A DNA stretch of 64,000 nt, taken from NCBI GenBank assembly GCA_963719985.1, contig CAVRDU010000005.1, positions 578,817-642,816 of the forward strand, given 5' to 3'. This stretch comes from Candidatus Aminicenantes bacterium. Lineage in GTDB: Bacteria; Acidobacteriota; Aminicenantia; Aminicenantales; Saccharicenantaceae. Positions 2,934 through 25,170 of the stretch are shown in pieces (position 1 is the stretch's first letter; every line of letters begins with the position of its first letter). The notes under the pieces are model-generated. The model was not told where the DNA came from. It made no database searches and saw nothing but the letters and a program-made list of their open reading frames with translations. The translations under genes and the position numbers were made by a program.

Positions 2934-4466
2934 CTAGCGCTTGCCGCCGAGGATGGAACCGAGGACACCGCGCAGAATGGAACGCCCGAGCTGGCTGCCG
3001 ACCGAGCGGGCGGCGCTCTTGGCCATAGCCTCCATCAGGGTGTCCTTGGACCGCCCGGGGGCACGCCGCGGGGCCGGCGGGTAGCCGGCCTGGCCCCGCC
3101 GGGGAGCCGGCGGGGAGGGGTAACCGTAGGGCGCCTGCGCGGCCCTGGCCTGGGCCTCCGCCTGGGCCTGGGCTTCGGCCGCCGCCCTCTCGGCCCGCGC
3201 CTTGAGCATCTCGTAGGCCGAATCCCGGTCGACGGCCTTCTCGTAGTGCCCGTAGACGACCGAGCCCTGGATCGCGGCCTGCCGCTCCGGCGGCGTGATC
3301 GGCCCGATGCGGCTCCACGGCGGCAGCACGAGGGCCCGCTCGACGACCCCCGGCTGCCCCTTCTCGTCGAGGAAGGAGACGAGAGCCTCGCCGGTCCCGA
3401 GCTGGGTGATCACGGTCTCGACGTCGATCTTGGGGTTCTGGCGGAACGTCTCGGCCGCGGCCCGGACGGCCTTCTGGTCCCTGGGCGTGAAGGCCCGCAG
3501 GGCGTGCTGGACGCGGTTGCCGAGCTGCCCCAGGACGACGTCTGGGACGTCGAGGGGGTTCTGGGTGACGAAGTAGATCCCGACGCCCTTCGACCGGATG
3601 AGCCGGACGACCTGCTCGATCTTCTCGAGAAGGACCTGGGGGGCGTCCGTGAACAGGAGGTGGGCCTCGTCGAAGAAGAAGACGAGGCGCGGCTTGTCCC
3701 GGTCGCCGACCTCGGGCAGGCGCTCGAAGAGCTCGGCCATGAGCCAGAGGAGGAAGGTCGAGTAGGCCCGGGGCGACATCATCAGCTTGTCGGCGGCCAG
3801 GATGTTGATGATCCCCCGGCCGGCGCCGTCGGTCTGCATGAGATCGTCGAGGCCGAGGGCGGGCTCGCCGAAAAACCGGTCGGCCCCCTGGTCCTCGAGG
3901 GCGAGGAGGTTCCGCTGGATCGTCCCGATGCTGGCTGGCGAGATCCGGCCGTAGTCGGTCTCGAACTCGTCGGCGTGCTCCCCGGCGTACTGGGCCAGGG
4001 CCCGGAGGTCCTTGAAATCGAGGAGGTGGAGCCCGGTGTCGTCGGCGACGCGGAAGACGATGGTCAGCACCCCGCTCTGGACGTCGTTGAGATTGAGCAG
4101 GCGCGAGAGAAGGAGCGGCCCCATGTCCGACACGGTCGTCCGCACGGGATGGCCCTGCTCGCCGAAGATGTCCCAGAACGCGACCGGGCTCCCCTCGAAG
4201 GGGTGGTCGCCGAGCTTGAGTGTCCCGATCCGCTCCTGGATCTTCGGGCTGGCCATGCCGGCCTGGCTGACGCCGGCGAGGTCGCCCTTGACGTCGGCCA
4301 TGAAGACCGGGACGCCGAGCCGGCTGAAGCGCTCGGCCATGACCTGGAGCGAGACGGTCTTGCCCGTGCCCGTCGCGCCGGCCACGAGGCCGTGGCGGTT
4401 GGCCATCTTCGGGAGGAGCAACAGGTCCTTTTCCCCCCGGGCGATCAGCATCCCTTCGAGTGCCAT
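2934..4466 (-). CDS. HerA-like helicase/DUF853 (YjgR-like) P-loop ATPase with low-complexity Ala/Gln/Pro C-terminal tail
   Basis: Walker A GATGTGKT and Walker [11 protein letters not shown], with YjgR-like overall similarity. The track ORF 2934..5300 is over-extended; I take the start at the internal ATG (MALEGM) preceded by GGAGG. The C-terminal ~80 aa are [22 protein letters not shown] low-complexity. Confidence 0.75.
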
Positions 4467-8422: not shown

Positions 8423-9874
8423 TCAAGGCGATCCGGAGACGTTCGATTTGGCGTCTATTCCGTGCTTTTTCAATAGCTTGAATAGGCCCTGACGGGTCAG
8501 GCCGACCTCGGCCGCGGTCCGGGTCCGGTGGTAGCGGCAGCGGACCAGGGCCTCGCGGAGGAAACGCCTCTCGAAATCGGCCTTGGCCTCGGCGAAGCAG
8601 TGCGTCGTCCGCGAATAGGTCTCCCCGGCCGGGTTGATCTTGGGCGAAAGGTACTCCTCGAGAATGAGCGGCCCGCCGTCGGCCATGATCAGGCACCGCT
8701 GGACCTCGTTCTGGAGCTCCCGGACGTTGCCCGGCCAAGGGTAGCGGAGGAGCATCTCCAGCGCGACCGGCGAGACGAAGGGCCGCGGCCGGCCCATCGA
8801 CCGCGAGTACTCGTCCAGAAAACGGTTGAGGAGAAGGAGCGCGTCGTCCGGGCGCTCGCGCAGGGGCGGCAGGTCGACGGCGATGATCTTGATCCGGTAG
8901 TAGAGGTCCTGGCGGAAGCGCCCCCGCTCGACCTCGTGGTCGAGGTCCTTGTTCGTGGCGCTGACGAAGCGGGTGTCGACGGGCCGGGGCCGCGTCTCCC
9001 CGATCCGGCGGACCCGCTTCTCCTCGAGGACGCGGAGGAGCTTGGACTGGAGGGCGAGCGGCAGGTCGCCGATCTCGTCGAGGAAGAACGTCCCGCCCGA
9101 GGCCTCCTCGACGAGCCCGGACTTGTCCCGGACCGCGCCGGTGAACGCCCCCCGGGCGTGGCCGAAGAGCTCGCTCTCGAGGAGGGTCTCGGGGATGGCG
9201 GCGCAGTTGACGGCGACGAACGGCCCCGTCCGCCGCCGGCCCGTGTCGTGGAGGATGCGGGCGGCCAGCTCCTTGCCCGTGCCGCTCTCCCCGGAGATGA
9301 AGACCGGGGCGTCCGTGTCGCGGACCCTTTCGAGCATGGTCCGGACGCGGCGGACCGAGGGGGCCTCGCCCATGAACGCGCAGTCCGGGGCGACGGCGGA
9401 CGGCGGCGCGGGCGGCAGGGAGGCCGCCTCCCCGGAAGCCCTGGCGCCGTTCCGGCGGAGAAGGAAGAGGAGCGGGGCCAGCGTCAGGGTCAGGAACTCG
9501 AGATCGCCCCTGTCGAACGGCCGTCCTCCGCCGTCGCGGGCCAGATAGACGAGCCCGGCCGGACGCCCCCGCATCGTCCAGGGGTAGGAGAGTACGCGCC
9601 GGGGGTGCCCGTTCGCGCCGAGCTCGAGGTCGGCGAAGAGCGGCTCCCTGTCGAGGTCCGCCACGAGGACGGGGCGGCCGATCTCGAGGGCGCGCCCCGC
9701 GATCGCCTCGTCGACGCCGTCCGAGGCCCCGGCCGCCCCCCGGGCGTTCCCGATGCCCCTCGAGGCCTCGAAGGCCCGGTCGCCCTTGCCGTCGAGCACC
9801 CGGAACAGGGCCCGGTCCGAGGCCATCTCGTCGAAGACGATCTCCGCGATCCGGGCCAGGAAGCGTTCCGTCAT
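8423..9874 (-). CDS. Sigma-54-dependent transcriptional activator (bEBP) with N-terminal GAF domain and C-terminal Fis-type HTH
   Basis: AAA+ sigma54-interaction domain (GESGTGKE, GAFTGA, RVLEEK..., PGNVRELQN) and C-terminal HTH. The track ORF 8423..11101 is over-extended; the start MTERFLARIAE is in frame at 9874. Confidence 0.85.
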   Translation of the reverse strand: MTERFLARIAEIVFDEMASDRALFRVLDGKGDRAFEASRGIGNARGAAGASDGVDEAIAGRALEIGRPVLVADLDREPLFADLELGANGHPRRVLSYPWTMRGRPAGLVYLARDGGGRPFDRGDLEFLTLTLAPLLFLLRRNGARASGEAASLPPAPPSAVAPDCAFMGEAPSVRRVRTMLERVRDTDAPVFISGESGTGKELAARILHDTGRRRTGPFVAVNCAAIPETLLESELFGHARGAFTGAVRDKSGLVEEASGGTFFLDEIGDLPLALQSKLLRVLEEKRVRRIGETRPRPVDTRFVSATNKDLDHEVERGRFRQDLYYRIKIIAVDLPPLRERPDDALLLLNRFLDEYSRSMGRPRPFVSPVALEMLLRYPWPGNVRELQNEVQRCLIMADGGPLILEEYLSPKINPAGETYSRTTHCFAEAKADFERRFLREALVRCRYHRTRTAAEVGLTRQGLFKLLKKHGIDAKSNVSGSP

Positions 9875-10021
9875 GGTCGTTGGCGGGCCGGGATCCCCGG
9901 CCTCATCATAACAACGCTCGGCCGGCTGCGGTTTTCTCATTCTTGCGGAGCCGGGCGTCGATACCCTAGAATAGGCCGACGGCCGGACAGTCCCGCCGTA
10001 CCACCCGTCGAGGAGGAGTCC

Positions 10022-12358
10022 ATGACCAAGATCGCCGCGGTTCTCGGCATCCTCTGCCTGTTCGGCAGCGCGTTCGCTTCCCAGCAGAAGCCCTCGGTCG
10101 CCGAGGCCTTGAAGAAGACGCGGGTCCTGGCCGTCCCCGGGAATGGGCGGCCGGTCGACAGGACCGTGGCCGAGGAGCTCCGCCGCGAGCTGGCCCCGCA
10201 GGCCCAGGTGCGGAGCGCCGGGCCGGACGAGGCGGCCGGGCCGGGCGTCGTCCGCATCGCCGTCGCCGACGAGAATCTCGCCGCCGGGCCTTCCCCCGAG
10301 GCGCGGCGCCGTGCGACCGGGAAAGATTGGATGTTCTTCAGGCTCGCCCCGGACGGCTCGGGCGAGCTCGTGACCTCCGCTCCCCACCTCCTCTACGCCC
10401 TGTATCGCCTGGTCAAGGACGACTGGGCCGGGCTCGACGCCGCCGGCTTCGAGAAAGGCAACGTCGTCTCGCCCGCGTTCTCCCGCCTCGAGGGCGGCGA
10501 CAACTACCTGGCCAATCCGAAGCGGGTGGCGGCGGGCTACGACGCCGAAACCTCGGTCCGCGAGCTGGCCCGGCTCGGCTTCAGCCACGTGCCCGTGAAC
10601 GCCCTGGCCAAGGACATGCCGGCCGAGCAAGGGCCGCCCGGGGAGATCTACTACCGCTTCTATTACTTCAGCCCCGACCTCGACCAGTTCGTCGAGACGC
10701 CGCTCAACGCCGGGGCCTACTCGCCCGAGTACCTCGAGGCCAATCTCACCCTGCTCAAGGAGAACGCCCGCCTGGCCGTGAAATACGGCCTGACGCCCGG
10801 GCTCAACATCAGCTCGCCGCGCTCGGTCCCCGACGCCGTCCTCGAGAAATACCCCTACCTCCGCGGCGCCCGGGTCGACCATCCCTTCAGGAGCTACCGC
10901 CCCCGCTTCACCCTGACCCTGTCGCACCCGGCCGTCCGCTGGCATTACGCCGAGCTCATGCGCCGGCTCATGCGCGAGGTCCCCGAGCTCGGCTACATCT
11001 ACCTCTGGACGAACGACAGCGGCTCGGGCTTCGAATATACGGCCAGCCTCTACGCCGGGCGCAACGGCGGCGCCTACCTCGTCCGCGAGTGGAAGTCGCA
11101 CGAGGCCGTCGCCAAGGCCGCGGCCGAGAACGTCCTGCGCTATTTCCGGACGCTGCGCGACGCGGCGGCCGAGACCCGGCCCGATTTCCGGCTCCTGTTC
11201 AACCTCTTCTCCTTCGCCAACGAAGAGGCGTTCATCCTCGACGGCCTATCCGAGGGCCTCGACCTCTGGGTCGCGCCGAAGGAGCTCGACGACTCGCCCC
11301 GCGGCCGCCGGCTCAAGTCCCTGCCGGGGAAAGGGAGCGAGATCTTCACGACGACACGGCTGCAGAACAACTATCTCCTGGGCATCCCCTCGCCGTGGCT
11401 CGCCGCCGAGGAGGTCCGCGCCCTCCGCGCGGCCGGCTTCGACAAGGCCCAGGTCACGGTCGACCCGCAGCCGCTCGCGCCTTACGACGTCAACCGCGAA
11501 GTGCTGAGGGCGCTCAACTTCGATCCCGACGCCAACGTCGATTCCGTCGTGATGGCCGCGGCCGCGCGCTTCGCCGGCAAGCGCGGCGCCCCGGCCCTCG
11601 TCCGGGCCTGGCGGCTCGCCGACGCGGCCGTGCGCGGCTTCCCCTCGATCATGCTCTACGGCGACAACAACTGGGGTTTCCCCTGGTACCGGCTCCTCGT
11701 CAGGCCCTTCGCCCCCGACATCGAGAAGATCCCCGAGCCGGAGCGGGCCTATTACGAGAAGTATATGACCGTGACCTTCAACAACCCCAACCTCGTCGAC
11801 CTCGGCGTGGACATCCTCTGGACGCTCATGAACACGGAACAGGCGGACGCGGCCGTGGCCCAGGCCGACGGCAAGACCTGGGCGCCGCTCGACCAAGCCA
11901 TCGCGGCCCTCGGCGAGGCCGTCGGGGAGACGGACGGCGCTCTCCAGGCCGTCTTCACGGACCAGCTCGACAGGCTCCGGGCCTTGCGCTGCTACTTCCG
12001 GACGCTCCGCAACACGGCCGCCTGGGTGGCCGGCGTCCACGGTTATATCGAGGCCAAGGACTCGGCCGAGAAAGCGAGGCGACGGGAGGCGGTGCGGGCC
12101 ATGGTCGACGACGAGATCCGGAACGCCCGGGACCTGGCCGCGCTCTTCGAGTCGTCGAAGACCCGGTTCATGCCCGTCGATCCGACCGGCGAGACCTTCA
12201 ACATGTACGGCGCGAACCTCCCCGAGCTCATCGGGAAGAAGGTCGCCCTCATGGAAAAGCACCGCGACGACGAGCCGCGGATCGACCCCGATTTCATGTG
12301 GAGGATGCCCCCGGACGCGGGCCTCGACCCCGCGGTGTATCTTAAATACCGGAAGTAG
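10022..12358 (+). CDS. Hypothetical secreted protein (~779 aa), possible glycoside-hydrolase-like fold
   Basis: Strong [12 protein letters not shown] then ATG, followed by a signal peptide MTKIAAVLGILCLFGSAFA. Upstream track ORF sequence is antisense to the regulator gene. No family recognised by eye. Confidence 0.5.
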   Translation: MTKIAAVLGILCLFGSAFASQQKPSVAEALKKTRVLAVPGNGRPVDRTVAEELRRELAPQAQVRSAGPDEAAGPGVVRIAVADENLAAGPSPEARRRATGKDWMFFRLAPDGSGELVTSAPHLLYALYRLVKDDWAGLDAAGFEKGNVVSPAFSRLEGGDNYLANPKRVAAGYDAETSVRELARLGFSHVPVNALAKDMPAEQGPPGEIYYRFYYFSPDLDQFVETPLNAGAYSPEYLEANLTLLKENARLAVKYGLTPGLNISSPRSVPDAVLEKYPYLRGARVDHPFRSYRPRFTLTLSHPAVRWHYAELMRRLMREVPELGYIYLWTNDSGSGFEYTASLYAGRNGGAYLVREWKSHEAVAKAAAENVLRYFRTLRDAAAETRPDFRLLFNLFSFANEEAFILDGLSEGLDLWVAPKELDDSPRGRRLKSLPGKGSEIFTTTRLQNNYLLGIPSPWLAAEEVRALRAAGFDKAQVTVDPQPLAPYDVNREVLRALNFDPDANVDSVVMAAAARFAGKRGAPALVRAWRLADAAVRGFPSIMLYGDNNWGFPWYRLLVRPFAPDIEKIPEPERAYYEKYMTVTFNNPNLVDLGVDILWTLMNTEQADAAVAQADGKTWAPLDQAIAALGEAVGETDGALQAVFTDQLDRLRALRCYFRTLRNTAAWVAGVHGYIEAKDSAEKARRREAVRAMVDDEIRNARDLAALFESSKTRFMPVDPTGETFNMYGANLPELIGKKVALMEKHRDDEPRIDPDFMWRMPPDAGLDPAVYLKYRK

Positions 12359-12395: not shown

Positions 12396-12644
12396 TCAGT
12401 CAGTTCCGTAGAAGTGAGGATGGAGGTCCTGTTCAGGGATGAAACGGAGGGCTTGACGGTAGATCGCTTGGACCGTCCCGGGCGCGAGTTCCCGATGCAG
12501 GGGGACCGTCAGGATCTGTGAAGGCATGGTTTCGGTCTCGCGCTTCAGCTTGGCGTGGCTGCCCCGTATCGAAGCGGCCGAAAAGCCGAGCGCCCGGAGG
12601 ATCCGCAGGACCTGCTGGGCCGACAGGCGCCTAAGCCTCGCCAT
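12396..12644 (-). CDS. hicA: Type II toxin-antitoxin HicA family toxin (mRNA interferase)
   Basis: 82 aa YcfA/HicA-like (LRALGF...GSHAKL). Overlaps the upstream hicB by 14 nt. Confidence 0.8.
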   Translation of the reverse strand: MARLRRLSAQQVLRILRALGFSAASIRGSHAKLKRETETMPSQILTVPLHRELAPGTVQAIYRQALRFIPEQDLHPHFYGTD

Positions 12645-13182
12645 CGCCGGACAATCTTTCCTCGTAGGTCACGGCGATCCTCGGAGACGCCGAAAGGCCG
12701 AACTCGCCCGGGTCCTCGCCTTCGAGATGGAGCCGGACCGCTTGCCTGAGATTCCGCAGGAGCTCGTCGAGCGATCGGCCCTGTGTGACCAGGGCCAGCT
12801 CCAGGCTGTCGGCGACATAGAACCCTGCCGAACGGCGCACCACGACATGGATCGTGTCGCGCGCGGGGCCGGCCGGAGCGTAGGCCGACGGGCTCTCCGC
12901 GACCCGCTTCGGCGCTTCTTGTTTCACGTCATAGGGTGACAGGATCACATACTCGCCCCGGCCCACGCGCCGGAAATAGGCCCATTTGTGCGGATGGTTC
13001 TTGGGGGCGTTGACGCAGCACCGGCTGACGATATGGGTGCGGACCGAGCTCGGATTCAAGTGGGGGAGGGCGTGAACGACGTCCGCGACATGGAAGATCT
13101 TTTCCCCGCGTTCCCGGCAGATCCGCCTGGCCGTCGCAAGCACTTCCTCATGAATGGCCATGGCTTTAAACCTCGGGAGCAT
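12631..13182 (-). CDS. hicB: HicB family antitoxin (UPF0150 fold) fused to an uncharacterised ~110 aa N-terminal Cys/His-containing domain
   Basis: The C-terminal ~70 aa (IHVVVRRSAGFYVADSLELALVTQGRSLDELLRNLRQAVRLHLEGED) fit HicB. The N-terminal part (…HIVSRCCVNAPKNHPHKWAYF…) is unrecognised. Translationally coupled to hicA. Confidence 0.6.
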   Translation of the reverse strand: MLPRFKAMAIHEEVLATARRICRERGEKIFHVADVVHALPHLNPSSVRTHIVSRCCVNAPKNHPHKWAYFRRVGRGEYVILSPYDVKQEAPKRVAESPSAYAPAGPARDTIHVVVRRSAGFYVADSLELALVTQGRSLDELLRNLRQAVRLHLEGEDPGEFGLSASPRIAVTYEERLSGDGEA

Positions 13183-13418
13183 GATAACACTTGATAAATA
13201 TGCGTGTCAAGTTGATATATGAAGATGCGAGAGGGAAAACGAGAAGGGCCTAAAATCTCTTTCGGCTTCGCTTCACGGACGTGTTGGACGTTGACGGTGA
13301 CCCCACTTTGGCGGTCTATCAGGGCCTGGAACTCCCCGATCAAGCTCCGGCGTCCCGGCATTGACACTCCCGGGCGCCGGGGATAACCTTGGGCCATCCG
13401 TCGAGGAGGAGAGGTCCC

Positions 13419-15176
13419 ATGAGAATCCGCCCGATCGCCGCCATCACTTTGTGTCTACTGGCTCTGGGTGTCGCCGGCGCCGCCCCGGCCCCCTCACCCC
13501 CCGCCTCGGGCCAGGCTCAGGCCCATGCCCCCGACCGCCTGCAGTGGTTCCGCGAGGCCAAGTTCGGCCTGTTCATCCACTGGGGCGTCTACTCGATGAT
13601 CGGCCGCGAAGAATGGGCCCGCCAGATCCTTCAGATCCCGCTTAAGGAGTACCAGTACTACGCCGACAACTTCGACCCGGTCGAGTTCGACCCGGACGAG
13701 TGGGCCGCCCTGGCCAAGGAGGCCGGCGTCAAGTACGCCGTCATCACCTCGAAGCACCACGACGGCTTCGCCATCTACGACAGCGCCCACTCCGACTACG
13801 ACGTCATGCGCGCCAAGTACGGCCGGGACATCCTCGGGCCGCTCTCGGCCTCGATGAAGCGGGCCGCGATCCCGCTCGGGTTCTACTACTCGATCATGGA
13901 CTGGCACCACCCCGACTACCTCCCCCGCCGGGCCTGGGAGACGGACCGGACGGCCAAGGGCGCCGACTTCGGCCGCTACATGGACTTCGCCACGAACCAG
14001 ATAAAGGAGCTCGTCGCCAAGTACGACCCGGCCGTTCTCTGGTTCGACGGCGAGTGGGAGCACTCGAACGAGGAGCAGCGGGCCTTCGCCATCGGCGAGA
14101 TGCTGCTCGAGATGAAGCCCTCGCTCCTCATCAACGACCGCCTCTACCGGCGCGAGCCGGGCTACGGCGACTTCGGCACGCCGGAGAACTTCGTCCCGGC
14201 CACGGGCGTCCGCAACCCCGACGGCTCGCCCCGCCTCTGGGAGGCCTGCTACACGATGAACTGGAACGGCTGGGGCTTCAACCGTTACGAGACCGAGTTC
14301 CACAGCGCCCCCCAGCTCATCCGCCAGCTCGTCGAGATCGTCAGCAAGGGCGGCAATCTGCTCCTCAACGTCGGGCCGCAGCCGGACGGCAGGATCCAGG
14401 ACGACTTCGTCGCCCGCCTCCGGGAGATCGGCGTCTGGCTCAAGGCCAACGGCGAGGCTATCTACGGCACGACGGCCAGCGTCTTCGAGCGCCTGCCCTT
14501 CTTCGGCCGGTGCACGGTCAAGGGACAGACCCTCTACATCCACGTCATGGGCTGGCCGAACGACGGCCGGATCCGCTTGCCGGGTCTCCAGACCGACGTG
14601 AAGAAGGCCTATCTCCTGGTGGATAAGACGAAGGCCCTCCCGTTCCGGCGCGCCGGCCAGGACGTCGTCGTGACGCTCCCCGCGCGGGCGTCCGATCCCG
14701 ACGCGACCGTCGTCGTCGTCGAGCTCGAAGGCGAGCCCGTCGTCGAGCCGTACCGGATCGTCCCCGGAGAAGGACGGCCGCGTCGAGCTTCCCAGTTTTC
14801 CTCGCCGATGTTCAGTCCGCTATGGGCCAGCGCGCCTACGTCGACCATTTCCACAAGACGACGATGCTGGCCAACTGGCAGAACGTCAACGACTACCCGG
14901 AGTGGGTGTTCACGACGGCCAAGCCCGGCGACCTACGAGGTCCGGGCCTCCTACGCCAGCATGTGGGGCGGGAAGGCCGGTTACGAGGTCGAGGTCGACG
15001 GCCAGAAGCTCGCCGCCCAGACGGAGTCGTCGCCGAGCGTCTACGTCCCCAAGACGTTCACGGTCGGCACCGTCAAGCTCGAAGCGGGCGAGCACAAGCT
15101 CCAAGTCCGGATCACGTGCGTCACCAACAACCACGCCATGAACCTGGAGAAGGTGGTCCTTGTCCCGGCGAAGTAG
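13419..15176 (+). CDS. Alpha-L-fucosidase (GH29) with C-terminal carbohydrate-binding-like domain; two compensating frameshifts near 14778 and 14935
   Basis: Signal peptide MRIRPIAAITLCLLALG, then GH29 motifs (AKFGLFIHWGVYS, HHDGFAIYDS, WFDGEW). A ~150 nt segment (…VDHFHKTTMLANWQNVNDYPEWVFTTAKPGD) is encoded in another frame and rejoins as YEVRASYASMWGG. Confidence 0.75.
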   Translation: MRIRPIAAITLCLLALGVAGAAPAPSPPASGQAQAHAPDRLQWFREAKFGLFIHWGVYSMIGREEWARQILQIPLKEYQYYADNFDPVEFDPDEWAALAKEAGVKYAVITSKHHDGFAIYDSAHSDYDVMRAKYGRDILGPLSASMKRAAIPLGFYYSIMDWHHPDYLPRRAWETDRTAKGADFGRYMDFATNQIKELVAKYDPAVLWFDGEWEHSNEEQRAFAIGEMLLEMKPSLLINDRLYRREPGYGDFGTPENFVPATGVRNPDGSPRLWEACYTMNWNGWGFNRYETEFHSAPQLIRQLVEIVSKGGNLLLNVGPQPDGRIQDDFVARLREIGVWLKANGEAIYGTTASVFERLPFFGRCTVKGQTLYIHVMGWPNDGRIRLPGLQTDVKKAYLLVDKTKALPFRRAGQDVVVTLPARASDPDATVVVVELEGEPVVEPYRIVPGEGRPRRASQFSSPMFSPLWASAPTSTISTRRRCWPTGRTSTTTRSGCSRRPSPATYEVRASYASMWGGKAGYEVEVDGQKLAAQTESSPSVYVPKTFTVGTVKLEAGEHKLQVRITCVTNNHAMNLEKVVLVPAK

Positions 15177-15257
15177 AGATCAAGCCCACTTCTCCGGGGT
15201 CGGGGAGTTCCCTCTCTACGGCTTTGCTCGGGAATCAACAACGGCGTGGAGGAAGCT

Positions 15258-15956
15258 ATGAGAGTTACGGTCACAACGGTCCTATGGGGTCTGGTCATCG
15301 GCGGTCTCGTCGCCGGGGCGGCGCAGACGCCGGCCAAGAAGGGCTGGACCGACACGTTCGCCGTCGACAAGAAGGATTTCGTCTCCATCGGCGCGAACGA
15401 CTACTTCCGCCTCGAGCCGGGCTACGTCCTCGTCCTCGAGAAGGGCAAGGTCCGGTTGGTCATCACCGTGCTCGACGAGATGAAGCTCGTCGACGGCGTC
15501 GAGACCCGGGTCGTCGAGGAGCGGGAATCGAAGGGCGGCGAGATCGTCGAGGTCTCGCGGAACTACTTCGCCTTCAATACGGCCGACCGGGGCGTCTACT
15601 ATTTCGGCGAAGAGGTCGACATCTACAAGAATGGCCGGGTCGTCGACCACGAGGGCGCCTGGGAGTCGGGAAAGAAGGGGGCCCGCTTCGGCCTGATGAT
15701 CCCGGGCCGGCCCGCCGTCGGGGACCGCTTCTACCAGGAGGTCGCGCCCGGTATCGCCATGGACCGGGCCGAGATCGCCGCCCTCGATGCGTCGATCAAG
15801 ACACCGGCCGGCGAGTTCAAAGGCTGTCTCAGGTGCGTCGAGACATCGCCCCTCGAGCCCTTGGCCCGGGAGTCCAAGATCTACGCGCCGGGCATCGGGC
15901 TGGTCAAGGACGGCTCGCTGCTTCTCGTCGAGCACGGCCGCAAGGAGGAGAAATGA
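15258..15956 (+). CDS. Hypothetical secreted protein
   Basis: MRVTVTTVLWGLVIGGLVAGAAQ signal peptide. No family recognised. Confidence 0.45.
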   Translation: MRVTVTTVLWGLVIGGLVAGAAQTPAKKGWTDTFAVDKKDFVSIGANDYFRLEPGYVLVLEKGKVRLVITVLDEMKLVDGVETRVVEERESKGGEIVEVSRNYFAFNTADRGVYYFGEEVDIYKNGRVVDHEGAWESGKKGARFGLMIPGRPAVGDRFYQEVAPGIAMDRAEIAALDASIKTPAGEFKGCLRCVETSPLEPLARESKIYAPGIGLVKDGSLLLVEHGRKEEK

Positions 15957-18070
15957 GACAGCGAGTTCCCATCATCGCCCTGATCGCCGTCTTCGCCACG
16001 CTCATCGCGGGAACGGCTGGAACGAGGGCAGCAACGGGCGCCGAGAAGCCGTTCTCCCTCCAGGATGTCCTCGCGCCGGCCTATCCCATGGACCTCGTCT
16101 CGGCCGCCAAGGCCGACCGCGTCGCCTGGATCATGAACGACCGAGGCGCCAGAAACGTCTGGACCGCGGCCGGTCCGGACTTCAAGCCCGTCAACTTGAC
16201 CGGCTTCGCCCAGGACGAGGTCTTCGAGATCGACGAGGTCCTGCTCACGGACGACGGCCGGACCGCCGTCTTCGTCAAAGGCGGACGACCCAACGCCGCC
16301 GGCTGGGTGACGAACTCCGACAGCGACCCCGACGGGCGCGAGCAGGCCGTCTGGGCCGTCCTGACTGACGGGGGCAGACCCTGGAGGATCGCCTCCGGGA
16401 GCGGGCCGGTCCTCGCGCCGGACGGTCTTTCAGCGCTCCTCGTCAGGGAAGGGCTGATCTACCGCGTCCCGCTCGCTCCCCGCCAAGGCCCGGGCGAGGG
16501 CCCGGAGCCCGAGCTCCTGTTCCGCGCGGCCGGCCGCAACGGCCAGCCCCGCTTCTCCCCCGACGGCGGCCGCGTCGCCTTCGTCAGCGAGCGGGACGAC
16601 CACAGCTTCGTCGGCGTCTTCGACCTGGCCCGCCGACGGATCACCTGGATCGCCCCGAGCGTCGACCGCGACAGCGAGCCGCGCTGGTCGGCCGACGGGA
16701 CGCGCGTCGCCTTCATCCGCCGGGCCGGCCTGACGTTCGACGCGGCCGCCGCCTCCGAATTCCGCGGCCGGGGGCCGGTCGACCTGGCCGTCTGGGTGGC
16801 CGAAGCCGCCTCCGGTGAAGCGCGCGAAATATGGCGGACGCCCGAGGACGGGCCGCGGTTCCACGCCTTCCGGAACTTCGACCTCGCGGCGAACGGCCGG
16901 ATCCTCTTCACCGCCGAGCGGGAGGAGTGGAACCACGTCTTCTCCCTGCCCCTCGCGGGCGGGGCGCCCGAGGACATCACTCCCGGCGACGGGTTCGTCG
17001 AGCACCTCGGCCTCTCGGCCGACGGCGCGACCCTCTACTACTCGAGCAACCTCGGCGACCTCCACGGCCGGCGCGTCTGGAAGGTCGCGACCGCCGGGGG
17101 CAAGCCCGTCCCGCTCAGCCCGAGCGACGCCATCGGAACGTTGCCCGTCGCCCTCGCCTCGGGCCGCGGCGCGGCCTTCCTCTACGCCACGGCCGTCCAT
17201 CCGACCTCGGTGGCGACGATTGGCGCCGCCGACGGCAAGGTCGCGGTCGTCGCCCCGCGCGAGCTCCCGGCCGAGTTCCCACTGAAGGAGCTCGTCAAGC
17301 CGCAGCTCGTCGTCGTCAAGGCGGCCGACGGCCTCGAGGTCCCCTGCCAGCTCTTCCTGCCCAAGGGGGCCAAGGCCGGCGACCGCCGCCCGGCCGTCGT
17401 CTACACCCACGGCGGGCCCATCCGGCAGATGCTCCTCGGCTGGCACTACATGGAGTTCTACTCGGAGGCCTACGGCATCAACCAGTTCTTCGCCTCGCGC
17501 GGCTACGTCGTCATCTCCATCAACTACCGGAGCGGCATCGGCTACGGCCGGTCCTTCCGTGAGGCCCCGAACTGCGGGATGGAGGGCGCGGCCGAGTACC
17601 AGGACGTCCTGGCCGGCGTCGAGTACCTGCGGAAGAGGCCCGAGGTCGACCCCGAGCGCGTCGGGGCCTGGGGATTGTCCTACGGCGGGTTGCTCACGGC
17701 CATGTCGCTCTCCCGCGACTCCGACATCTTCAAGGTCGGCGTCGACATGGCCGGCGTCCACGACTGGTCGCAGATGCGCTGGGGACGGCTCGACGAGGCC
17801 CGGCGCAAGGTCGCCCGGGAGTCCTCGCCGGTCGCCTCGGTCGCGTCCTGGACCTCGCCGGTCCTGTTCATCCACGGCGACGACGACCGCAACGTCGCCT
17901 TCCAGCAGACGACCGACATCGTCCAGCGGCTGCGGGCCAAGGGGGACGTCACGGTCGAGCTGATGATCGCCCCCGACGAACCCCACGAGTTCTTGCTCCA
18001 CCGCAACCGCTTGGAGGCCTACGAGAGGACGTTCGCCTTCATCGACCGATTCATCGGCGGGAAGAGATGA
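15953..18070 (+). CDS. S9 family serine peptidase (prolyl oligopeptidase/dipeptidyl-peptidase type) with N-terminal beta-propeller
   Basis: Signal peptide, WD40/TolB-like propeller region, C-terminal alpha/beta hydrolase with GLSYGG nucleophile elbow plus Asp/His. The ATG overlaps the previous stop (ATGA). It is embedded in the chimeric track ORF 14822..18070. Confidence 0.8.
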
Positions 18071-23851: not shown

Positions 23852-25170
23852 ATGAATAAATACGGCCGAAGGCAATTTCTCAAGACCGCCGCCGCGGCCG
23901 GGGCCGCCGCCGTGGCCGGATTCCCGACCATCGTCAAGGCTTCGGCCCTGGGCAAGGACGGGGCCGTCGCGCCCTCGGACCGCATCGTCATGGCCGGCAT
24001 CGGCTTCGGCATGATGGGCCCGGGCAACATGTCGAGCTTCCTCGAGAAACCCGAGGTCCAATGGGTCGCCGTTTGCGACATCGACAAGGAGCCGCTGGCC
24101 ATGGCCAAGGGGATGGTCGACAAGAAGTACGGCAACAACGCCTGCGCGACCTACCACGATTTCCGCGAGCTCTACGCGCGCAAGGACCTCGACGCCGTGT
24201 CCATCGCCGTGCCCGACCACTGGCACGCGATACTGTCGATCGCCGCTCTTCGGGCCGGCCTCGACGTCTACGGCGAGAAGCCCCTGACCCACAACCTGCG
24301 CGAGGGCCGGGCCCTCTGCGACGCGGTCGAGCGCTACGGCCGGGTCTGGCAGACGGGCTCGTGGCAGCGCTCGGTCGAGAACTTCCACCAGGCCGCGGAG
24401 CTCGTCCGCAACGGCCGCGATCGGCAAGATCAAGCGGATCGAGGTCGGCCTGCCGTCGGGGCATTACGACTTCGCCCGGACCTTCGGCCAGGAGGCGCTC
24501 GTCGCCCCGCCGCCCAATCTCGACTACGAGTTCTGGGTCGGCCCGGCGCCCTGGTGGCCCTACTGCAAGGCCCGCGTCCACATGAACTGGCGCTGGAACA
24601 TGGATTTCGGCGGCGGCCAGTACATGGACTGGATCGGCCACCACCTCGACATCGCCCACTGGGGCATGGGCTGGGACGAGACCGGCCCGGTCGAGATCGA
24701 GGCGGAAGGCGAGTTCCCGACCTCGGGCATCTACAACTCGCCGACCCGTTATTACGTCAAAGCCAAGTACGCCGACGGGACGCCCATGGTCTTAGCGGGC
24801 GGGCACGACGAGATCTGGAGCGGGACGAAGTGGATCGGCGAGTACGGCTGGATCTGGGTCGACCGGGGCCAGTTCGAGACGGAGCCCGCGAGCCTGAAGC
24901 GACGAGGTCATCGGGCCGGAGGAGGTCCGCCTCACCAAGAGCCGGGACCACCACCAGAACTTCCTCGACTGCGTCCGCAGCCGGGGGAGGACGATCACCC
25001 CGGCCGAGACGGCCCACCGGTCGGCGAGCGTCGGGCACCTCGGCGTCATCGCCATGGAGGTCGGCCGCAAGGTCCGGTGGGACCCGGCGACCGAGACGAT
25101 CATCGGCGACCCCGAGGCGGAGCGGCTCCTCGGCCACTCCTACCGCAAGCCCTGGCAGCTGCCGGAGTGA
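23852..25170 (+). CDS. TAT-exported Gfo/Idh/MocA family oxidoreductase, two frameshifts (~24419, ~24900)
   Basis: MNKYGRRQFLKTAAAAGAAAVAG TAT signal, GIGFGMMG Rossmann, EKPL motif. Continues in the frame of 24582 (IGKIKRIEVGLPSGHYDF…) and a third frame (…DEVIGPEEVRLTKSRDHHQNFLDCV…WQLPE stop). Confidence 0.65.

Follow-up and report, generated by a model that had tools for sequence, protein, structure and literature searches.

The DNA considered here, a stretch of 64,000 nucleotides from a Candidatus Aminicenantes bacterium (assembly GCA_963719985.1, contig CAVRDU010000005.1, positions 578,817 to 642,816) that is referred to as a whole as the window, carries two co-directional open reading frames (ORFs) on the minus strand, one at 13182..12631 (183 residues if read from its first ATG) and the other at 12644..12396 (82 residues), which very probably constitute a functional type II hicBA toxin-antitoxin (TA) module. 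The antitoxin gene lies upstream and hicA downstream, and the ATG of hicA is located inside the antitoxin gene, with an overlap of 14 nt (ATGGCGAGGCTTAG). This overlap had been recognised in a first-pass annotation made from the letters of the stretch, which took the pair for a HicA and a HicB-type antitoxin of more than usual size, extended by an additional N-terminal domain and coupled to the toxin in translation, and both the overlap and this core reading are borne out. The AT-rich region that the same annotation described as flanking the pair is also seen in the base composition, the GC content at 13100-13400 being 0.51-0.58 versus 0.65-0.70 in the flanks.

The downstream product had been named a HicA toxin, in agreement with its match to Pfam HicA_toxin over residues 10-65 (50.8 bits for a cut-off of 27, E=1.9e-13) and to PHROG 353 'toxin' (E=7.6e-11), the sole PHROGs family found. 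In HicA proteins, whose fold is dsRBD-like, the histidine of the GSH motif is the catalytic residue; in the present one, R27-G28-S29-H30 is aligned with the RGSH of PDB entry 9svk and the KGGH of 1whz, and H30 is kept in 76 of the 79 distinct homologues from related loci. Past the Pfam domain, residues 66-82 (12396-12449, minus strand) make up a conserved C-terminal tail of 17 residues, in which R67 is found in 75, F68 in 68, P70 in 62, L74 in 78 and F78 in all of 80 homologues, and this tail may contact the antitoxin. A tblastn search of the 64-kb window found no second copy of HicA, HicB or the DUF7669 domain described below; a weak match to HicA at 24022, inside an oxidoreductase-like gene, was discarded as due to chance.

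The antitoxin gene starts at ATG 13161, that is, at Met8 of the longer ORF, and its product has 176 residues rather than the 183 first assigned to it. The reasons are several: among the best 120 of the 1052 database proteins retrieved as antitoxin homologues (E<=0.001), nearly all are 176 residues long and begin with MAIHEEVL, which corresponds to Met8; the ATG at 13182-13180 is located within the -10 hexamer of a sigma-70 promoter, and is not kept in homologous loci (L002 and L003, for example, lack it), in contrast to the Met8 ATG and the GAGG 9 nt ahead of that codon. The real start is thus an internal codon, a case that the first-pass annotation had contemplated together with the N-terminal part being a separate gene; seven residues are trimmed, but no gene is split off.

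Read from Met8, the antitoxin comprises an N-terminal domain, a linker and a C-terminal domain. The region of about 110 residues that had been placed before the HicB fold as one domain does contain an N-terminal domain, although the folded part spans only about 75 residues and is followed by a linker of about 23 (residues 76-98). This linker shows the lowest conservation in the family alignment, is nevertheless in frame throughout, and receives from AlphaFold a predicted local distance difference test score (pLDDT) lower than 50; it is probably disordered and may provide a protease-accessible site. As for the HicB fold itself, partly RNase H-like and noticed from the start, the HicB-like identity of the roughly 75 C-terminal residues is well supported at the fold level by profile comparison and by modelling. 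They match PDB entry 2yzt (TTHA1756 of T. thermophilus) with E=5.2e-5 as a single sequence and E=1.8e-8 as a family profile, a Foldseek search with the full antitoxin model returns 2yzt and the putative antitoxin 3k6q as best matches, and the predicted topology is beta-beta-beta-alpha-beta. Its Pfam matches are sub-cut-off, with E=0.0014 for DUF1902 and E=0.0064 for DUF7387, and TTHA1756 itself has weak matches to HicB_lk_antitox (E=0.021) and DUF1902. Several homologues of the antitoxin are annotated by JGI (Joint Genome Institute) as 'predicted RNase H-like HicB family nuclease'. NCBIfam yielded no match for the antitoxin or for HicA.

The N-terminal domain, regarded at first as unassignable, matches Pfam DUF7669 (PF24706) over residues 1-75 with 28.6-28.8 bits, for a gathering cut-off of 23, and so do all 20 aligned relatives. 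In Pfam, this is a family without a described function, and it is not mentioned in openly searchable papers, a coverage that excludes subscription journals. An AlphaFold2 model of the domain alone, based on a 61-sequence alignment (pLDDT 92.6; predicted template modelling score, pTM, 0.80), confidently predicts a winged helix of the order alpha1-beta1-alpha2-alpha3-beta2-beta3 (helices at 3-18, 25-31 and 37-47, strands at 22-24, 63-67 and 70-73, with a long loop after the third helix). Foldseek searches of the PDB retrieved mostly winged-helix domains, such as those of cullin WHB, MCM8 WH, IdeR, IclR, MecI/BlaI, forkhead and TFIIE-beta, but none of the matches is significant (E>=0.4, TM scores of 0.32-0.57), and the viral structure library BFVD gave a similar picture. 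The first-pass annotation had considered that this region could turn out to be one of the standard DNA-binding partners of HicB; none of these, that is, ribbon-helix-helix (RHH), Xre-type helix-turn-helix (Xre-HTH) or Phd/YefM, appears at E<=1 in a Pfam scan of the antitoxin, but the predicted fold does belong to a DNA-binding class. Because of this fold class, operator binding is the likeliest job of the domain.

A search of 1.84 billion representatives yielded 155 DUF7669 relatives, 144 of which were aligned and 134 of these also match the Pfam family. The conserved positions comprise R41, T42, H43 (126/143), S46, R47, C49 (142/144), N51, A52, P53, H56 (131/143), R65, G69 and Y71, and the motif [ST][IV]RTH[VI]xSRxCxNAPxxH is near-invariant across the whole sample. 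Among the HicB-fused members, the helix predicted to serve for recognition, SVRTH[IV]VSRCC, is invariant.

Upstream of the pair, a sigma-70 scan found TTGACA-18 nt-TATCAT at 13210..13181 (minus strand), with 11 of 12 matches and a TG before the -10 box (1 site versus 0.2 expected), TATCAT being 19 nt upstream of ATG 13161. A GAGG or GGAGG Shine-Dalgarno sequence is conserved across most homologous loci. The palindrome over the -35 box has a second copy in the spacer (ATCAAGTG), and the two form a direct repeat (TTGATAAAT/TTGATATAT) with a spacing of 21 bp (Table 1). In close relatives, both sites are conserved together with the promoter core and the spacer, and the sequence farther upstream has diverged; in more distant relatives, the promoter hexamers or the stretch between them carry TTACAAsTTGTAA, TTACACGTGTAA, AATCACGTGATT or TTATCACATGATAA. 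Taken together, palindromes of the types TCAAsTTGA, TTACAAsTTGTAA and TTACACGTGTAA lie over or between the hexamers in most loci.

The enrichment of these palindromes was evaluated by comparing, for 81 distinct family loci, the upstream 150 nt with the rest of the locus. CAA[CG]TTG occurs at 3.70 per kb upstream versus 0.05 per kb elsewhere, a 74-fold enrichment, and sites that do not overlap TTGACA, present in 64 of the 81 loci, reach 8.9 per kb versus 0.42 per kb in the rest and 0.90 per kb in AT-matched control windows (about 10-fold). The invariance of the recognition helix within the subfamily fits the CA...TG core that these sites share, and enrichment and helix together provide good indirect evidence, drawn from sequence comparison, that the putative winged helix is an autoregulatory DNA-binding domain.

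Two other observations concern the same signals. A second exact TCAAGTTGA is found at 16191-16199, within the coding sequence of a long ORF (14822..18070), and is probably there by chance, since the 8-mer pattern has 8 matches in the window versus 3.6 expected. After hicA, no terminator was detected, since the hairpin does not surpass those of shuffled sequence (z=-0.02), and the plus-strand terminator proposed by the scan was rejected, as it falls inside the convergent gene.

Table 1. Genes, domains and control elements of the hicBA module, in window coordinates.
Feature	Position	Strand	Basis or remark
Antitoxin gene (DUF7669, linker, HicB-like domain)	12631..13161	-	176 residues + stop; homologue lengths and starts
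hicA toxin gene	12396..12644	-	82 residues + stop; Pfam HicA_toxin, PHROG 353
N-terminal DUF7669 domain, residues 1-75	12937..13161	-	Pfam PF24706, 28.6 bits; winged helix predicted by AlphaFold2
Linker, residues 76-98, variable, probably disordered	12868..12936	-	pLDDT <50; poor conservation
C-terminal HicB-like domain, residues 99-176, DUF1902/TTHA1756 type	12634..12867	-	PDB 2yzt, predicted topology, Foldseek
-35 hexamer TTGACA	13205..13210	-	Sigma-70 scan; conserved in homologous loci
-10 hexamer TATCAT, extended (TGn upstream)	13181..13186	-	Sigma-70 scan; overlaps ATG 13182
Candidate operator site 1, palindrome TCAAsTTGA (TCAAGTTGA)	13207..13215	.	Overlaps -35 box
Candidate operator site 2, ATTTATCAAGTGTTA	13185..13199	-	In promoter spacer; 21 bp spacing to site 1
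Copy in site 2, CACTTGATA	13188-13196		Within promoter spacer
Shine-Dalgarno GAGG	13171..13174	-	9 nt before ATG 13161

The anatomy of the module, read in the light of established HicAB biology, suggests a mechanism. The sigma-70 promoter would drive a bicistronic mRNA with a short leader, whose first gene would yield the 176-residue antitoxin, with its predicted winged helix, flexible linker and HicB-like domain, and whose second gene, coupled in translation through the overlap, would yield HicA, an RNA-binding RNase with His30 as its likely catalytic residue. The C-terminal domain of the antitoxin would bind HicA and block its active site, and dimers of the winged helix would bind the two CAAsTTG-type sites, at the -35 box and in the spacer, so as to repress the operon. 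Upon loss or displacement of the antitoxin, free HicA would be expected to cleave RNA and to arrest growth. DNA binding by DUF7669, HicA neutralisation, toxicity and the trigger are all steps that we infer by analogy. That DUF7669 acts as the operator-binding domain of the module is probable, and so is the operon as a whole in the form described, that is, a type II hicBA operon whose promoter is repressed by the winged helix and whose toxin is neutralised by the C-terminal domain.

There are several points that weigh against this autoregulatory operon. The N-terminal domain has no significant structural match (best Foldseek E=0.42 in the PDB and 0.086 in BFVD), and the comparison of DUF7669 sequence profiles with solved structures retrieved no relative, the matches to helices of TetR and vinculin being at chance level. 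In the Pfam scan, the C-terminal domain stays below the curated cut-off of every HicB-type family. Four stand-alone DUF7669 genes lack the CAAsTTG palindrome upstream. The palindromes share part of their sequence with the -35 box, and another regulator could recognise them. Lastly, the recognition helix and the loop that follows it are near-invariant in DUF7669 proteins with unrelated partners, which is atypical of sequence-specific repressors and could reflect a common ligand other than the operator.

This last point leads to the alternative that DUF7669 is mainly a sensor or trigger (or a sensor as well as a repressor), by which a common cue, be it some feature of DNA, a component of a phage, or a signal of metal or redox type, would cause the release of HicA in an abortive-infection switch; the same domain would guide the nuclease-fused members of the family too. 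The near-invariance of the RTH-to-NAPxxH motif in the 144 representatives speaks for such a role, as do the very different partners of the domain, which include a GIY-YIG nuclease annotated in RefSeq and, at sub-threshold level, PD-(D/E)xK-type, HD and AAA families, and the stand-alone copies found in mobile or defence-like surroundings (integrase, transposases, HSDR_N). Furthermore, Gerdes, who sorted HicA contexts into 14 classes (mBio 2024; PMC10865869), proposes anti-phage roles for HicA contexts. We nonetheless consider the sensor unlikely, since neither the antitoxin nor HicA is matched by the PADLOC defence models, the module of the window lies between glycoside-hydrolase-type genes rather than in a defence island, no ligand can be named, and autoregulation is a simpler account of the conserved promoter palindromes. 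In a more general version of the idea, which seems quite unlikely, DUF7669 would be more than another repressor domain: a conserved module for sensing, with a near-invariant RTH..SR.C.NAP..H surface that reads one cue, reused as the control domain of several effectors. The cue would be a DNA structure or modification, or else a metal or redox signal perceived via H43, C49 and H56; the effectors would be HicA (through HicB), GIY-YIG and PD-(D/E)xK-like nucleases, and the products of unannotated downstream genes. If this were true, the hicBA pair described here would be a signal-gated toxin and not simply an autoregulated TA pair.

It has also to be weighed whether the CC..H.H loop (CCVNAPKNHPH), which comes directly after the predicted recognition helix (helix 3), is a zinc- or redox-sensitive metal site, in which case the N-terminal part would be a small metal-binding domain whose state controls the stability or the DNA binding of the antitoxin. 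The first-pass annotation had pointed to a conserved-looking CC…H…H segment, and the segment (SRCCVNAPKNHPHKWAYF) is indeed present and invariant within the close antitoxin family; C48, C49, H56 and H58 are likewise invariant in the HicB-fused subfamily. DUF7669-wide, however, only C49 and H56, plus H43, are kept: position 48 is Cys in 79 of the 144 representatives and either Met or Leu in 64, whereas a His at position 58 occurs in just 35 of 143. A Cys2His2 zinc site as a family-wide feature was ruled out on these grounds, since a conserved set of four ligands is lacking. Confidence in the domain model is lowest in the loop carrying the residues (residues 51-60, mean pLDDT 79), but the winged helix is confidently predicted without one, and zinc-finger and zinc-ribbon families went unmatched in the Pfam scan. 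A metal switch is very unlikely, and what may exist is a metal site of lesser extent, formed by H43, C49 and H56.

As for the N-terminal region being a separate small gene or a start artefact, with a true antitoxin reduced to the HicB-like part of about 75 residues (similar to Gerdes class 2), it is effectively excluded: although the first ATG is indeed wrong, and stand-alone DUF7669 proteins (77-100 residues) and small stand-alone HicB proteins exist elsewhere, the frame is uninterrupted over 176 residues in the best 120 of the 1052 proteins and in 80 genome loci, the linker is variable yet in frame, and promoter and Shine-Dalgarno sequence are placed before Met8 (TATCAT 19 nt and GAGG 9 nt upstream of ATG 13161).

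Returning to the hicBA operon with its putative winged-helix repressor, its distribution was traced by scanning a single genome from each species, in which 103 loci were returned and 80 kept, while 85 related loci served to check the pairing of the genes. The 80 loci belong to Candidatus Aminicenantes, other Acidobacteriota, Alpha- and Gammaproteobacteria and Thermodesulfobacteriota, and the closest relatives of the antitoxin (80-89% identity) are from Candidatus Aminicenantes. In 84 of the 85 loci, the antitoxin homologue is followed directly by a gene for a HicA homologue, the single locus with no detectable hicA after it being L080 (antitoxin homologue at 3001-3540). The neighbouring genes vary, for instance GH172 and radical SAM genes at one locus and DNA methylase, Vsr and HNH genes at another, and the pair behaves as a mobile two-gene cassette. 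The full fusion is missing from the PLSDB plasmids, in which only the N-terminal domain finds matches, and from the phage collection.

The metagenome-assembled genome (MAG) MFD00905.bin.2.185, also from Aminicenantes, has three paralogous copies of the module, two of them on one contig about 20 kb apart (L009 and L023) and the third at L010. All three have a common promoter/operator layout of TCAACTTGACA...ATCAAGT (GTCAAGT in one copy), and given this common layout they could cross-regulate each other.

Within the window, the neighbours of the module are glycoside-hydrolase-type genes. The divergent ORF at 13389..15176 (likely start 13420) encodes a signal peptide and has the look of a secreted glycoside hydrolase. 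On the other side, the plus-strand ORF 8528..12358 (1276 residues; region 8423-12358) is over-extended, with a signal-peptide-like start (MTKIAAVLGILCLF) in the middle of the ORF, and its 5' part overlaps, in antisense orientation, a minus-strand gene that resembles a sigma-54 activator.

The fusion with HicB is one sub-architecture of DUF7669, most of whose members stand alone with about 80 residues (range seen, 77-100). Six DUF7669 loci outside the HicB-fusion set, L086-L090 (gene at 4001-4255 in each) and L091 (2470-3249), were also inspected. Stand-alone DUF7669 genes (80-84 residues) precede unannotated genes, and their neighbourhoods contain an integrase, insertion sequence (IS) transposases, and HSDR_N or TrwB-like genes. 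In other cases the domain is part of a longer protein: on the RefSeq plasmid NZ_CP038016.1, next to UvrX- and UvrD-like genes, DUF7669 forms the C-terminus of a GIY-YIG nuclease, and further members have sub-threshold matches to PD-(D/E)xK-type, HD and AAA families. Close DUF7669 relatives with a different C-terminal domain, characterised by the motif IDRTLIRxxLxxSxEERLxxLQ (P0144, P0152, P0155, P0159, P0162 and P0245), may represent another antitoxin-type module with the same N-terminal head; in the four that were scanned (P0144, P0152, P0155 and P0162), this C-terminal domain has no Pfam match.

A comparison can be made with the HARE-HTH domain (PF05066), a winged-helix reader domain attached to restriction-type nucleases. 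DUF7669 would share with it the character of a small winged-helix module that occurs alone or fused to GIY-YIG or PD-(D/E)xK-type nucleases, but no significant sequence relationship between the two was found. A winged-helix reader domain attached to a restriction-type nuclease is also the arrangement of the N-terminal type of Mrr. One DUF7669 member matches HARE-HTH weakly (E=0.011) and another, P0238 (411 residues), strongly (E=2.1e-7), in what seems to be a separate N-terminal domain, P0238 being the only representative long enough to hold a second one; for this reason, the two domains are read as standing side by side in it and not as one family. An hhalign comparison of the DUF7669 profile with the HARE-HTH N-terminal domain of B. 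subtilis RpoE gave a probability of 0.2%, that is, no relationship.

Among the HicA contexts described so far, the nearest is class 5 of Gerdes, which together with class 6 groups hicBA pairs of reversed gene order with an N-terminal DNA-binding domain of the Phd/YefM type (PMC10865869). With class 5 the present module shares the antitoxin gene in first position, overlapping genes, an N-terminal domain of a predicted DNA-binding type, a C-terminal domain of probable HicB fold and a small single-domain HicA. It differs in that a DUF7669 domain of predicted winged-helix fold (H-E-H-H-E-E) takes the place of Phd/YefM, which is not detected at E<=1, and in having the probably disordered linker of about 23 residues and a HicA with a conserved 17-residue C-terminal tail. 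Classical HicAB systems, for which the crystal structure of E. coli K-12 HicA2B2 is cited, and in particular classes 3 and 4, whose HicB has C-terminal HTH or RHH domains (PMC10865869), have in common with it a HicA with the GSH histidine, a HicB-like, presumably neutralising domain and a presumed autoregulation via the attached DNA-binding domain; the gene order is reversed here, and the predicted winged helix is N-terminal, versus the C-terminal Xre-HTH or RHH of the classical antitoxins. In class 7, HicB has 216-233 residues and contains a pair of DUF1902 domains, while a DNA-binding domain is not recognisable in it, and in class 8 it is larger still; DUF1902 genes are often juxtaposed to hicA (PMC10865869). 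The likeness to class 7 is that the C-terminal domain is nearest TTHA1756 (E=1.8e-8) and weakly DUF1902, and the difference is one such domain plus DUF7669 instead of two DUF1902 domains. Judging from sequence and models, the module is class-5-like in its likely working, although it lacks the defining Phd/YefM, and it fits no other Gerdes class.

Neither the winged helix, nor DUF7669, nor Acidobacteria are mentioned in the survey of Gerdes (PMC10865869), and a winged-helix HicB is undescribed in the openly searchable literature, which again leaves out subscription journals. The hicBA pair with an N-terminal DUF7669 thus appears to be an ordinary HicAB type II TA system whose architecture is undescribed. 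The general understanding of HicAB systems is unchanged by it, but it adds to the HicA/HicB repertoire a hicBA with an N-terminal DUF7669 domain of predicted winged-helix fold, unlisted in the 14-class survey. The architecture is common, with 1052 proteins at E<=0.001 and more than 100 species-level genomes, mostly uncultured, from at least three phyla. In practical terms, the finding allows such pairs to be annotated in MAGs of Acidobacteriota and Proteobacteria and offers a candidate operator-repressor pair. For the DUF7669 family, it provides a first testable function, the candidate being operator binding at CAAsTTG-type palindromes.

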